A DNA stretch of 32,542 nucleotides from Candidatus Omnitrophota bacterium. Lineage in GTDB: Bacteria > Omnitrophota > Gorgyraeia > Duberdicusellales > 4484-171. Shown in pieces: positions 2,144 through 31,693 of the stretch. The translations under genes and the position numbers were made by a program. Below the pieces are notes generated by a model. It made no database searches, was not told where the DNA came from, and was given only the letters and a program-made list of their open reading frames with translations. Each line of letters opens with the position of its first letter. Positions within the stretch are counted from its first letter, which is position 1. The DNA is taken from NCBI GenBank assembly GCA_041652615.1, contig JBAZGZ010000001.1, positions 1-32,542 of the forward strand, read 5' to 3'.

Positions 2144-3484
2144 ATGCCAAACGATATTAGTTTTGCTAAAAAATCCGGAAATAATTCAAACTTTACGGCA
2201 ATAGTTCTTGCCGCGGGAAAAGGCGTAAGAATGAAATCGGAGCTGCCGAAAGTTCTTCATACGCTTTCCGGCAAACCGCTTATCGGCTATTGTTTAGAAC
2301 AGCTAAAATCCATCAAAAATATAAAACAAATAATTGTCGTAACGGGCTATGGCGCGCAGTCCGTAGAAACATATGTGAAAAATAACTTTAAAGGTGTTGA
2401 ATTTGCAAGGCAGAAAAAATTGCTTGGCACGGCAGACGCGGTTAAGTGCGCAAGAGCAGAAGTAAAATACGAAAATGTTTTAATCCTTTGTGCTGACGCG
2501 CCGCTGATTACGGCTGAAACGTTATCTTCCTTTATGGCTTCTTACGAAAGCGAAAAACTGACAGCTTCAATTATTACCGCGTATATTGATAAAAAAAATG
2601 ACCTGGGGAGGATTATCAGGGATACTTACGGCGCGATTAAATCTATATGCGAAGTCAGTGATTTGCGTAAACATATTAATCTAAAAATCAGCCTAAAAGA
2701 AGTTAACAGCGGTATCTATGCGTTTAATCGCAGAACGCTTTTTGAAAATCTTAAATATATAAAGAGAAACGAGATTAAAGGTGAATATTATTTTACCGAT
2801 ACGATAGAGATTCTTTATAATAACGGTATCAAAATAGGCTCTTATGTGCTTTCTGACAGTGATGAAATCTTAGGTATAAACAGTCCGAGAGAGCTTTCTT
2901 TGGCGGAGAGAATAATCAATAAAAGGGTGGTAGAGTATTTTATGGCAAGCGGGGTGAGAATAATGGATCCCCAAAGCACCTTTATCGCCGAGAACGTAAA
3001 GATTGGTAAAAATACCTTAATTTATCCCTTTACCTTTATAGAAAGGAATGTTATAATTGGCGTCCGTTGCGAAATCGGCCCTTTCGCGCATTTAAGGCAA
3101 GGGGTTTGCATATCCGACGATACAGCAATAGGTAATTTTACGGAAATCAGCCGTTCCAAAGTTGGAAAAAACACTAGAATTAAACAGTTTAGCTATATTG
3201 GCGATGCTACTATCGGCGATAACGTAAATATAGGCGCGGGTACAGTTGTAGCTAATTATAACGGTAAAACCAAAAATAAAACTATTATAGAAAAAGGAGC
3301 ATCCATTGGTTCGGATTCTGTTTTGGTTGCTCCGGTTAAAATCGGAAAATCTGCCATAACGGGCGCAGGCAGCGTTGTTCTTAAGAATGTTAAAGGCGGG
3401 GAAACAGTTGTAGGTGTGCCCGCTCAGGTATTAAAGAAAAATCGGAAGCTCGAAGGAAGAAAGACGAGAGACGAAGGACGATAG
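2144..3484 (+). CDS. glmU: Bifunctional GlcNAc-1-P uridyltransferase / GlcN-1-P acetyltransferase
   Basis: N-terminal LAAGKGVRMKS nucleotidyltransferase motif and a C-terminal left-handed beta-helix of hexapeptide repeats. The last ~10 codons (EGRKTRDEGR) are encoded by a heptamer repeat array. Confidence 0.9.
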   Translation: MPNDISFAKKSGNNSNFTAIVLAAGKGVRMKSELPKVLHTLSGKPLIGYCLEQLKSIKNIKQIIVVTGYGAQSVETYVKNNFKGVEFARQKKLLGTADAVKCARAEVKYENVLILCADAPLITAETLSSFMASYESEKLTASIITAYIDKKNDLGRIIRDTYGAIKSICEVSDLRKHINLKISLKEVNSGIYAFNRRTLFENLKYIKRNEIKGEYYFTDTIEILYNNGIKIGSYVLSDSDEILGINSPRELSLAERIINKRVVEYFMASGVRIMDPQSTFIAENVKIGKNTLIYPFTFIERNVIIGVRCEIGPFAHLRQGVCISDDTAIGNFTEISRSKVGKNTRIKQFSYIGDATIGDNVNIGAGTVVANYNGKTKNKTIIEKGASIGSDSVLVAPVKIGKSAITGAGSVVLKNVKGGETVVGVPAQVLKKNRKLEGRKTRDEGR

Positions 3485-3540
3485 AAAATAGAAGGAAGAA
3501 AATAAAGAATAGAAAATATTAAACTTCTATCTTCGTCCTT
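3452..3540. repeat. 7-nt tandem repeat array folding into an imperfect palindrome
   Basis: Consecutive heptamers from 3463: GACGAGA GACGAAG GACGATA GAAAATA GAAGGAA GAAAATA AAGAATA GAAAATA. The opposing arm is TTCTATCTTCGTCCTT (3525-3540). The array spans the glmU stop codon. Confidence 0.7.
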
Positions 3541-5644: not shown

Positions 5645-6208
5645 GTGAAAGTTATAGTTGGATTAGGCAATCCGGGTTTAAAATATAAAAATAATCGCCA
5701 TAATGCCGGATTTATGGTGCTTGATGAGATAGCCAAGCACGAAAAAGTTCTTTTTAAAAAAAGTTTCCTTTGGAACTGTTACTTTGTTAAGATAACGGCC
5801 GGGCAAGAGGTAATGCTTTTAATCAAGCCTCTGACATACATGAATAATTCGGGTCGTTGCGTTAAGAAGATTTTTTCAAAGTATGTGTTGGAAGCTAAAG
5901 ATTTATTGATAGTCTATGATGACGCTGATTTGCCTCTTGGCGCGCTTAGGTTAAAAACTTGCGGTTCAAGCGGCGGCCATCAGGGGTTAGCTTCGATAAT
6001 TACCCAGTTGAATTCGCAAGATTTTCCAAGATTAAAGCTTGGGATAGATAAAAATACCGGCGCAGATTTAGCTGATTATGTTCTTTCTGATTTTTCGGCG
6101 CAAGAAAAAGAAACAATTAGTGAATCAATTGCTAAGGCTGCTAGCGCGTGCGTAGATTGGGTTAAACGCGGAAACGAATACGTAATGCAAAATTATAATA
6201 ATTGTTAA
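5645..6208 (+). CDS. pth: Peptidyl-tRNA hydrolase
   Basis: GTG start gives VKVIVGLGNPG, the canonical Pth N-terminus. The NRHNAGF motif is present. Confidence 0.9.
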   Translation: MKVIVGLGNPGLKYKNNRHNAGFMVLDEIAKHEKVLFKKSFLWNCYFVKITAGQEVMLLIKPLTYMNNSGRCVKKIFSKYVLEAKDLLIVYDDADLPLGALRLKTCGSSGGHQGLASIITQLNSQDFPRLKLGIDKNTGADLADYVLSDFSAQEKETISESIAKAASACVDWVKRGNEYVMQNYNNC

Positions 6209-6315
6209 CGCGAATAAACGCGAATTTAGACCTGAATGGTTTTATTAAAGTATAAACGCGAATGCGCGCGAATAAAAAGGTTTATAGTTTTATTTTATTC
6301 GCGCGCATTCGCGTT
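6209..6315. repeat. CGCGAAT motif array plus perfect 23-bp palindrome directly after the pth stop
   Basis: CGCGAAT occurs at 6209, 6219, 6257 and 6267 (10-nt phasing within each pair). ATTCGCG occurs at 6297 and 6307. The stem is AACGCGAATGCGCGCGAATAAAA / TTTTATTCGCGCGCATTCGCGTT. Confidence 0.8.
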
Positions 6316-6354
6316 AGATTTGCGATAATTAGCGTTATAAAAGGAGGATAAAAC

Positions 6355-9344: not shown

Positions 9345-9383
9345 ACGCGAATGTTTACGAATTGCACACAAATATTCACAAAT
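9345..9383 (+). repeat. Phased heptamer array after the dnaB stop
   Basis: ACGCGAAT, TACGAAT, CACAAAT and CACAAAT end at 9352, 9362, 9373 and 9383, giving 10/11/10-nt phasing. No mirrored arm is present. Confidence 0.6.
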
Positions 9384-9429
9384 AAAAAGTTTGCGTAGTG
9401 GAAAGCGGGAAAATCTAAAAAAATCTTTT

Positions 9430-9612
9430 TACCCCGCCTCATAGAAGATGCTGGCTCATTGCCCCGCCTCGCAGGGGATGTCAAAAAAATCTGTTTCCCT
9501 GTAATAGGAAATTCCAGGGACTATGCCATATTTTTTTTGACGCTTGGCGGGGTTAATTCGCACTAGTATTTTTTCTTCGCCACTATTGGCTTGAAAAAAT
9601 ACTGTGCTCATT
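9430..9612 (+). repeat. Structured repeat, locus D: collapsed partial copy plus long clamped hairpin plus module (+)
   Basis: TACCCCGCCTCATAGAAGATGCTGGCTCATT (9430-9460) resembles an internally deleted unit. Clamp is CCCCGCC 9462-9468 with GGCGGGG 9546-9552. Nested stems are GTCAAAAAAAT/ATTTTTTTTGAC and TCCCTG/CAGGGA. Module 9553-9612. Confidence 0.8.
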
Positions 9613-9627
9613 AAATCTCTTATTGAG

Positions 9628-9656
9628 TTGACTTTAAATAAAAAAACCCTTATAAT
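9628..9656 (+). promoter_or_regulatory. Consensus sigma70-type promoter positioned for a leaderless bamA mRNA
   Basis: TTGACT (9628-9633), 17-nt spacer, TATAAT (9651-9656). The bamA ATG begins at 9663, 7 nt after the -10 hexamer, and there is no Shine-Dalgarno. Confidence 0.6.
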
Positions 9657-16028: not shown

Positions 16029-16124
16029 GTATAGAAGCGGATATCCGCGGATCAAAACGCGGATAAATGCAAGCGAGTTGCTGTGCGTAAATCCGCGTAA
16101 GTATCCGCGGTAATCCGCTTCTAC
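16029..16124. repeat. Mirrored GCGGAT motif array after the lpxA stop
   Basis: GCGGAT occurs at 16037, 16047 and 16059. ATCCGC occurs at 16091, 16103 and 16113. Spacing is symmetric (10/12 and 12/10). The motifs are complementary but the spacers between them are not. Confidence 0.8.
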
Positions 16125-22010: not shown

Positions 22011-22053
22011 ATTATCATTGGCGAAAAATATCCATGAACGATTTACACAGAAT

Positions 22054-22117
22054 ATGTAGGGGATGGGCTTGCCCCATCCCGTATTATTACGGGCGGGGAC
22101 AAGCCCCGCCCCTACAT
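22054..22117 (-). repeat. GC-rich four-segment double hairpin inside the radical SAM operon
   Basis: The sequence is ATGTAGGGGATGGGCTTGCCCCATCCCGTATTATTACGGGCGGGGACAAGCCCCGCCCCTACAT. It forms two adjacent hairpins closed by the outer stem ATGTAGGGG / CCCCTACAT. Confidence 0.8.
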
Positions 22118-22125
22118 AATACATT

Positions 22126-22154
22126 TATCCGTGCACAATTTGTGTACATCCGTG
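22126..22154 (-). repeat. Phased heptamer array after the B12-radical-SAM stop (minus strand)
   Basis: The minus strand reads CACGGATGTACACAAATTGTGCACGGAT. The CACGGAT / CACAAAT / CACGGAT units are phased at ~10-11 nt. Confidence 0.55.
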
Positions 22155-23435: not shown

Positions 23436-23567
23436 GGAAAAGTAGAGAGTAGAGGGTAGAAAGTAGAGAGATAGAAATAGCCAGAGATTTTAAAAATTTA
23501 AAATCTTTAGCTAGAATGATAATGTTAATTCTTCCTCTCTACCCTCTACTTTCTACTCTCTACTTCT
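23436..23567. repeat. 7-nt tandem repeat palindrome in the divergent promoter region
   Basis: Left arm: AGTAGAG AGTAGAG GGTAGAA AGTAGAG AGATAGA. Right arm: CTCTCTACCCTCTACTTTCTACTCTCTACTTCT. The centre holds the palindrome AGATTTTAAAAATTTAAAATCT. Confidence 0.8.
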
Positions 23568-31514: not shown

Positions 31515-31522
31515 TTTTTTTT

Positions 31523-31592
31523 ACACGGATGCAAACGGATGTCGCGGATAAAGACATGCGTTTGAATCCGAAATAATCCGTGACATCCGCGT
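31523..31592. repeat. Mirrored CGGAT motif array after the kdsD stop
   Basis: CGGAT ends at 31530, 31540 and 31549. ATCCG starts at 31566, 31576 and 31585. Spacing is symmetric (10/9). The array is preceded by a T8 run immediately after the stop. Confidence 0.75.
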
Positions 31593-31601
31593 TTTAACGG
31601 G

Positions 31602-31629
31602 TTGACTTTGATGTGTAATCTGGTATAGT
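31602..31629 (+). promoter_or_regulatory. Sigma70-type promoter for lptC-lptB
   Basis: TTGACT (31602-31607), 16-nt spacer, TATAGT (31624-31629). It lies ~65 nt upstream of the lptC ATG. Confidence 0.55.
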
Positions 31630-31693
31630 GTGTGTTTTCAAGTTTCCATCAGTTCATAATCCTAAAATATTCTACAATGGTGATTGAAAAATA

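Follow-up and report, generated by a model that had tools for sequence, protein, structure and literature searches.

Motif arrays after stop codons in an Omnitrophota genome as probable gene-less copies or single arms of hairpin minigene cassettes

In positions 1 to 32,542 of contig JBAZGZ010000001.1 from Candidatus Omnitrophota bacterium (assembly GCA_041652615.1), five genes are followed, in the sense orientation, by short motifs repeated at near-regular spacing. This 32,542-nt stretch, the window, belongs to contig C1 of the source assembly, G000 (1.69 Mb, 245 contigs, 38.9% G+C, 80% complete); other G and L labels denote related genomes. The question raised by this locus is what the arrays are and why they begin at stop codons. 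The original prediction, made from the sequence alone, had treated them as one kind of array placed after operon-final genes, by implication a signal of the operon end or of the transcript 3' end. We find instead that the five sites are very probably gene-less copies (after pth, lpxA and kdsD) or decayed single arms (after dnaB and a B12 radical SAM gene) of small selfish cassettes in which a minigene is enclosed by a hairpin.

RESULTS

Three palindromes and two unpaired arms follow stop codons in the window

All five arrays were found at the coordinates given in the original prediction, and they correspond to the following features.

6206..6337, plus strand: pth site, family C composite palindrome of 132 nt, recognized by inverted repeats, fold and empty orthologous spacers
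9346..9384, plus strand: dnaB site, unpaired four-unit arm (CGCGAAT, ACGAAT, CACAAAT, CACAAAT; about 10-nt spacing), no mirrored arm
16032..16123, plus strand: lpxA site, family A element TAGAAGCGGAT..ATCCGCTTCTA of 92 nt, a 60-nt-arm palindrome
22126..22154, minus strand: radical SAM site, unpaired three-unit arm (CACGGAT, CACAAAT, CACGGAT in the minus-strand reading)
31521..31596, plus strand: kdsD site, degenerate (3+3 units) family B copy, recognized by overlapping inverted repeats and fold

An inverted-repeat search confirmed the mirroring that had been described for the pth, lpxA and kdsD sites. At pth, the outer arms (6206-6228 and 6315-6337) form the weaker inverted repeat, with two CGCGAAT units mirrored as ATTTGCG and ATTAGCG, and nested inside them is a perfect 23-bp hairpin (6255-6277 and 6293-6315) carrying two CGCGAAT and two ATTCGCG units, exactly as predicted. 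The left arm of this element also contains a small side hairpin, and the element ends 17 nt before the GTG start of rpsF (6355), just ahead of the AAGGAGG ribosome-binding site. At lpxA, three GCGGAT units (spacing 10, 12) are mirrored by three ATCCGC units (spacing 12, 10), the element lying 8 nt from the lpxA stop codon and 30 nt from the next ATG (16154). The dnaB array begins 9 nt past the stop codon and is followed by CCCCGCC-type repeat modules at 9400-9560, while the radical SAM array begins 1 nt after the stop codon and adjoins a CCCCGCC-type double hairpin (22053-22118). The placement at or near a stop codon was borne out, and across the genome the median distance from stop codon to first motif was 9.5 nt.

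Folding was compared with dinucleotide shuffles. The pth, lpxA and kdsD sites gave predicted RNA folds of -55.6, -55.2 and -28.9 kcal/mol with z-scores of -7.6, -9.6 and -4.4, respectively, and both strands of each folded equally well, whereas the dnaB array (z-score of -0.28) and the radical SAM array (z-score of about 0) showed no fold beyond the shuffles. A search of the window against Rfam returned no family at gathering score.

To place the window arrays in the context of the whole genome, arrays of the same motif class were defined as at least three units of [ACG]C[AG][AG]AT at a spacing of 8 to 13 nt. By this definition G000 contained 269 arrays, compared with 2 to 5 in five block-shuffled genomes, an excess of about 70-fold over chance; in window-sized DNA about 0.07 such arrays would be expected. 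Because of this genome-wide excess, the arrays in the window, including the two unpaired ones, stand as real. The frequency of arrays within genes, a check that the original prediction had called for, was low: only 26 of the 269 lay in coding sequence, leaving 90% outside genes in a genome that is about 85% coding. When arrays of any hexamer were counted, there were 335 (287 of them intergenic) compared with 21 in shuffles, and ATCCGC/GCGGAT was among the most enriched hexamers in intergenic DNA, at about 9 times over-representation. More than 10 array families with unrelated motifs coexist in G000. The reported spacing of one helical turn is true of some families (NCRRAT, 9 to 12 nt) but not as a general rule, since unit lengths across the genome peak at 7, 9, 10, 12 and 14 nt.

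The paired arrays belong to dispersed families that are gained and lost among relatives

The five sites proved not to be one thing, as had been assumed: three belong to separate dispersed families, and the other two are arms that lack a partner. Family A, to which the lpxA site belongs, has 63 full copies and about 30 partial copies in G000. Its sequence reads TAGAAGCGGAT-nt-CCGCGGAT-ctaa-ACGCGGAT-AAACGC..loop..GCGTAA-ATCCGCGT-anat-ATCCGCGG-ta-ATCCGCTTCTA. Family B has 35 copies, of which the kdsD copy is worn, and its consensus consists of four ACGGAT units (spacing 10, 10, 9) followed by four ATCCGT units (10, 10, 9), the whole lying between an upstream T-run and a downstream A-run; the left-to-right spacing is therefore identical in the two arms and not mirrored. 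Family C, represented by the pth site, has a second full copy in G000 at C109:777-898 and, in the sister genome G001, no fewer than 20 copies. Identity between copies within the dispersed families ranged from 70 to 99%.

The two unpaired arrays resemble arms of such families. The dnaB mixture of ACGAAT and CACAAAT units matches the ACGAAT-family arms that bracket a GxxExxY gene at C29:2544-2885, and in two congeners, L020 and L021, the dnaB-bamA spacer is likewise occupied by palindromes of the ACGAAT type. The radical SAM array, detected by the motif-class scan, has the same beginning and end as the family B left arm (CACGGATG...CGGATAAA), and its CACGGAT and CACAAAT units match arms of the ACGAAT and ACGGAT families.

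Copies of these families are dispersed and have been gained or lost between congeners. The distribution of family A was patchy, with copies in 7 of 41 related genomes (more than 30 in G001 and some in G005, G024 and G016), and it was not found in G002, G003 or G006. The pth-rpsF spacer, which holds the 132-nt insert in the window, was empty in L016, L020, L021 and L024 (about 15 nt, the stop codon being immediately followed by the ribosome-binding site), L016 being the closest relative, with 94% DnaB identity. Likewise, the lpxA-lpxI spacer was empty in G006, G002, G005 and G001. G004 and G006 share the kdsD element at the corresponding position. Protein records were searched for identical LpxA or Pth proteins that might provide empty sites at strain level, and none were found.

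In the lpxA-lpxI spacer of G003 (L046) there is a different element of the same architecture, with three ACGAAT units and three ATTCGT units, so that this one narrow gap was filled independently in the two genomes. At the kdsD site, kdsD is separated from the following gene by kdsC (about 500 nt) in G001, G002, G003 and G005, and kdsC is missing in the window, G004 and G006. Positions 31515-31693 of the window hold the family B element in the place of kdsC, and the promoter-like site that follows is conserved in all genomes compared.

Arms of the same architecture enclose genes for GxxExxY and 23S rRNA intervening-sequence proteins

The gene-bearing and gene-less forms have arms in common, and their linkers match as well. 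Family A arms bracket a GxxExxY gene at two positions of contig C1 in G001 (54205-54682 and 60898-61375), and a deleted form is present on contig C17 of G000. The loop insert of about 400 nt encodes a protein of 132 to 135 aa that matched PF13366 PDDEXK_3 (E value of 1.3e-32) and TIGR04256 GxxExxY (E value of 3.9e-32). The gene-bearing form of family B, with identical linkers (ggtt, gtc ... gac), was found in G006 at C23:140336-140674. All other GxxExxY genes inspected in G000 and G006 were bracketed in the same architecture by a different motif, namely, CACAAAT/ACGAAT, GCAGAT, CACAGAT or, with family B linkers, ACGGAT. CGCGAAT/CGCGAAA-type arrays bracket the GxxExxY gene in L074 and L075.

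The association extended across the phylum and beyond it. PF13366 was present in 17 of 151 sampled Omnitrophota genomes, and about 18 of the 21 loci read had direct arrays just before the start codon and inverted arrays just after the stop codon, with motifs that included ATCCTGTC, CACTGAA, GATTAC-type, GCGAAA, CACGGAT (13 copies) and GCGGAT. In Patescibacteria, GxxExxY homologues were bracketed by GCGGAT arrays, and the Liptonbacteria copy retains the family A ends TAGAAGCGGAT..ATCCGCTTCTA. When flanks were scored for at least 2+2 inverted 5-mers within 130 nt, inverted arrays flanked 22 of 26 GxxExxY loci from Omnitrophota and Patescibacteria compared with 109 of 1,267 control genes (8.6%). 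Five small genes among the top-scoring controls turned out to be a second cargo, PF05635, annotated "23S rRNA-intervening sequence protein." G000 has eight PF05635 loci, and the five that were inspected have arrays of GACGAAG, GTAGAGR, GTGTAA, GTGTCA or GGTAW. The original observation that the motif changes from site to site while the architecture is kept was borne out, and it is explained by each cargo-gene lineage (GxxExxY or 23S rRNA intervening-sequence protein) carrying its own repeat motif.

The longer forms of family A carry GxxExxY or non-coding inserts only. Seven copies in G000 share a non-coding loop insert of 110 to 170 nt, of two sequence types, and make up a sub-family of intermediate length between the 92-nt and the gene-bearing forms.

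C2:139-305, C2:20841-21009, C5:16907-17102, C39:2898-3104, C14:3320-3531, C31:8216-8423 and C209:1355-1532 (G000): family A copies with non-coding insert

Cassettes sit between a stop codon and the ribosome-binding site that follows it

Cassettes lie between co-oriented genes, with a typical gap of 0 to 10 nt behind the stop codon and of 15 to 20 nt ahead of the following start codon. Where family A copies are flanked by co-oriented genes, the median distance from the upstream stop codon to the element was about 4 nt, and 8 of 42 copies supply the stop codon themselves through their TAG; the distance to the next start codon had its mode at 15 to 20 nt, just upstream of the ribosome-binding site. 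As many as 62% of the co-oriented copies occupied residual spacers of 41 nt or less, which make up 2.7% of the free tandem non-coding bases, and placement is therefore non-random per base.

These data bear on the possibility that the hairpins evolved locally at operon ends as transcription stops or stabilizers of the mRNA 3' end, the phased motifs being a by-product or a platform for factor binding. Strong hairpins do stand directly after stop codons, and in Escherichia coli, hairpins of the repetitive extragenic palindromic (REP) type stabilize the upstream mRNA. Moreover, the kdsD and dnaB sites each precede a strong promoter-like site (TTGACT-16-TATAGT at 31602-31629, which is conserved, and 9628-9656 with 11/12 matches, respectively), so that these two are at operon ends. 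The "operon-final" description holds for them only, since the pth and lpxA sites are 15- to 30-nt operon spacers in relatives. Because most family A copies end 15 to 20 nt before a start codon and leave no room for a promoter, efficient termination would silence the downstream genes of the operon. There was no U-tract at any site, the kdsD copy having only GUUUUAA, and none was terminator-like on the sense strand, in agreement with the earlier statement that these are not textbook intrinsic terminators. Rho-independent terminators share with the cassettes a G+C-rich hairpin shortly after the stop codon but differ from them in the U-tract; the cassettes have stems of 30 to 45 bp with regular internal loops, and most copies are intra-operonic. 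Family B has no orientation preference, two of the five sites are unfolded, the same arms carry genes elsewhere, and the families are dispersed, of high identity and variable in presence between congeners. Local terminators or stabilizers are thus an unlikely explanation, and the role as an operon-end or 3'-end signal that the original prediction implied was not upheld, given dispersed families that are present or absent in congeners and mostly sit within operons, 15 to 20 nt before the next start codon.

Family A elements point in the direction of the flanking genes

The polarity of family A was defined by its unpaired linkers and loop. Depending on scoring, 42 to 44 copies were oriented with the flanking genes and 7 against them (P = 3.6e-7 for 42 versus 7), so that 86% of the gene-less copies point with the host genes. 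In gene-bearing copies, the GxxExxY gene reads in the favored direction, and all 12 gene-bearing cassettes in G000 were co-oriented with their neighbors. Family B showed no orientation bias (about 16 versus 17). Gene-strand bias in this genome is very strong, with 1,311 of 1,398 gene junctions (94%) co-directional, and an apparent avoidance of divergent spacers was set aside as not meaningful for this reason.

An orientation bias could also be explained by a single-strand, replication-linked mechanism such as that of REP/REPIN-type elements mobilized by a RAYT (REP-associated tyrosine transposase, a Y1 enzyme of the IS200/IS605 kind). The elements are, like REPINs, multicopy extragenic palindromes, and G000 encodes seven Y1_Tnp (PF01797) proteins. 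However, when the flanks of all seven Y1_Tnp genes were read, none had GCGGAT, ACGGAT or CGCGAAT arrays; there are more than 10 array families for the seven Y1 genes, and the arrays bracket GxxExxY and PF05635 genes instead. We therefore regard mobilization by a RAYT as very unlikely. The Y1_Tnp locus at C90:2543-3199 has the hairpin TTAACCACACCAACCTACGCGGTTGATGTGGTTAA on both sides, and several other Y1 loci have flanking hairpins of their own. These Y1_Tnp genes and their hairpins may form REP-RAYT pairs of their own that have no connection with the arrays.

Motif class follows the cargo protein across hosts and phyla

When motif classes were mapped on a tree of 26 GxxExxY proteins, 13 changes were required, compared with a mean of 18.0 when the labels were shuffled, and none of 200 shuffles gave a count as low. 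Proteins with GATTAC-type arrays were monophyletic across four host families, and those with GCGGAT-type arrays clustered across host families and phyla. Motif class thus tracks the cargo-protein tree across hosts and phyla. The tree shows that motif and protein are inherited together as a unit; it does not itself show recognition, since kin share labels. Among distant cassettes, the hexamer was kept while the linkers diverged freely, which would be unexpected under a base-pairing constraint alone. This pattern of motif conservation and linker divergence indirectly favors the binding of the phased motifs by a protein.

A bound protein might be one of the host, nucleoid-organizing or regulatory, with the arrays as its platform and the association with small genes incidental. 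The 9- to 12-nt spacing in the NCRRAT families would put the sites on one face of B-DNA, and the motifs are conserved where the linkers are variable. Against this, more than 10 unrelated motifs with unit lengths of 7 to 14 nt would need as many host proteins, the families are gained and lost between congeners, and the motif tracks the cargo-protein tree across phyla. A host DNA-binding protein is accordingly the least probable of the explanations that we considered, and hardly to be expected.

The GxxExxY cargo itself was modeled with high confidence (mean predicted local distance difference test score of 90.5). Its best fold matches in the PDB were all PD-(D/E)XK nucleases (among them LHK-Exo, Cas4-type SSO0001 and Hjc resolvase), with TM-scores of only 0.4 to 0.5. 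Residues E30, D69, E79 and K81 were invariant in 44 GxxExxY homologues. A sequence search of solved structures gave no match to the GxxExxY protein.

Other arrays in the window

Besides the five sites, the window contains one further palindrome of the same kind.

23441..23564, no strand assigned: gene-less GTAGAGR-type palindrome, with GTAGAGR heptads at 23441-23468 and CTCTAC heptads at 23537-23564

It lies in the divergent spacer between the radical SAM operon and the next plus-strand gene; its gene-bearing counterparts in G000 (C29:4608-4973 and C35:7010-7375) enclose a 23S_rRNA_IVP gene. In addition, three GAAAAT units at 14-nt spacing occur at 3484-3517, starting from the last stop-codon base of the gene at 2144-3484.

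DISCUSSION

A model for the cassettes

The most probable explanation for the five sites is that they derive from small hairpin minigene cassettes. A full cassette consists of 2 to 13 direct copies of a 6- to 8-nt motif, one small gene and the same motifs inverted, the gene encoding either a GxxExxY protein of 125 to 135 aa with a PD-(D/E)XK nuclease fold or a four-helix-bundle "23S rRNA intervening-sequence protein." Deletion of the gene would leave a palindrome of 60 to 130 nt, which would then multiply by itself. The cassette would be transcribed through read-through of the host operon, and its hairpin would loop the insert out, keeping the next ribosome-binding site near the stop codon and making the insertion tolerable. 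The repeated motif would be recognized in a sequence-specific manner, most probably by the cargo protein with its intact E...PD...ExK active site, and spread of the cassettes, including the mobilization of gene-less copies, would depend on the cargo protein acting in trans.

More tentatively, it is conceivable that GxxExxY nucleases and intervening-sequence proteins bind the arrays flanking their genes and drive a transposase-free movement of hairpin or cruciform DNA into the gap between stop codon and ribosome-binding site. The cassettes would then be a new class of mobile element, with the 23S rRNA intervening sequence (IVS) as a special case. We consider this extended proposal less likely than not.

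Several findings weigh against the cassette interpretation or parts of it. No transposase, recombinase or reverse transcriptase was linked to the arrays. No target-site duplication could be demonstrated, and the relatives with empty sites were only about 75 to 82% identical. Both ends of family A carry TA (TAGAAG..CTTCTA), which may represent a duplication or a part of the element, the empty sites being highly diverged; among copies whose TAG is the stop codon, there was no consistent base after the terminal TA in the flanks. The sole gene-bearing family A copy in G000 (on C17) is without the catalytic core, and no intact cognate protein was found in this 80%-complete assembly. The dnaB and radical SAM arrays had no second copy anywhere in G000; being without a mirrored arm, a fold or a homologous copy, they are assigned only by motif class and genome-wide statistics. 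The link between protein and motif could be simple co-inheritance instead of recognition. Because 94% of gene junctions are co-directional, orientation relative to transcription is inseparable from orientation relative to replication. Finally, when the stem mismatches of family A were oriented by transcription, G.U (35) and A.C (49) did not differ significantly, and there was no excess of G.U on the transcribed strand.

Relationship to known elements

The nearest published object is the 23S rRNA IVS that bears an open reading frame (ORF). In Coxiella burnetii, the helix-45 IVS contains an S23p ORF and is excised by RNase III (PMC4990558), and 23S_rRNA_IVP ORFs have been described in the rRNA insertions of bacteria of the candidate phyla radiation (PMC11270868). 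Like the cassettes, these are selfish sequences with complementary ends, a long stem and a small ORF in the loop, and with ORF-less versions, and the PF05635 cargo is shared with eight cassettes in G000. An IVS is part of a host RNA; the cassettes are likened to it in this respect, being probably transcribed with the host operon. In contrast to the IVS, the cassettes lie between protein-coding genes, have arms built of short repeats and have a second cargo, the GxxExxY nuclease. All cassette copies were found between protein-coding genes and none in helix 25 or 45 of 23S rRNA. The 23S rRNA genes were sought in five assemblies for true IVS copies, and none were found.

REP and REPIN elements resemble the cassettes in being short extragenic palindromes, present in tens to hundreds of copies, often after stop codons and with several families per genome. 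The cassettes differ in that their arrays flank no RAYT gene, each arm is itself built of repeats, and a PD-(D/E)XK or four-helix-bundle gene lies inside the palindrome. The gene-less cassettes are also like the bacterial miniature inverted-repeat transposable elements (Correia/NEMIS, ERIC, RUP and BOX), which are non-autonomous, outnumber their gene-bearing form, are co-transcribed with neighboring genes (as the cassettes would be) and differ in presence and absence between relatives. Unlike these elements, the cassettes had no parent insertion sequence with a DDE transposase that we could find and no demonstrable target duplication, and the whole element is a hairpin instead of a stretch of unrelated DNA enclosed by terminal repeats.

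Excision of the IVS type is unlikely in G000, because no RNase III was found there or in seven members of the same family. In G000, the enzyme was not found by PF14622, by PF00636, by tblastn with an E. coli Rnc query or by a six-frame scan for ExLE[FWLYIV][LIVM]GD, and a Pfam search for the RNase III domain was negative in the seven same-family genomes, which are 87 to 95% complete. Across the phylum, 93 of the 151 genomes had RNase III; within the class, many families had none (e.g., 0/7, 0/7 and 0/9), which looks like the clade-wide loss of a near-universal enzyme. The idea that loss of RNase III permitted the expansion of hairpins was not supported; ten RNase III-negative genomes of the class had an array load of 3.8 per 40 kb compared with 2.6 in eight RNase III-positive genomes, with overlapping ranges.

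Significance of the cassettes

PDDEXK_3 has been listed with the function "Unknown" (PMC3424549), and the 23S rRNA IVS protein has been called "functionally uncharacterized" (PMC11270868). A literature search found no paper describing the pairing of hairpin arrays with these cargo genes, and the GxxExxY papers that it did find do not concern repeats. New here are the assignment of the sites, three families with their census, polarity and docking, the co-occurrence of the two cargo types within a single genome, the tree relating protein to motif, the family A ends shared across phyla, and the missing RNase III.

The cassettes tie two widespread orphan families, GxxExxY/PDDEXK_3 and the 23S rRNA IVS protein, to one testable genetic object with defined ends, motifs that covary with the protein and a niche between stop codon and ribosome-binding site inside operons. 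They break metagenome assemblies (245 contigs here, several of which end in an element) and inflate ORF calls. Their gene-less derivatives form a sizeable part of the intergenic DNA in this Omnitrophota genome, and the cassettes offer direct experiments on the function of the cargo proteins as well as a candidate origin for the intervening sequences of rRNA.

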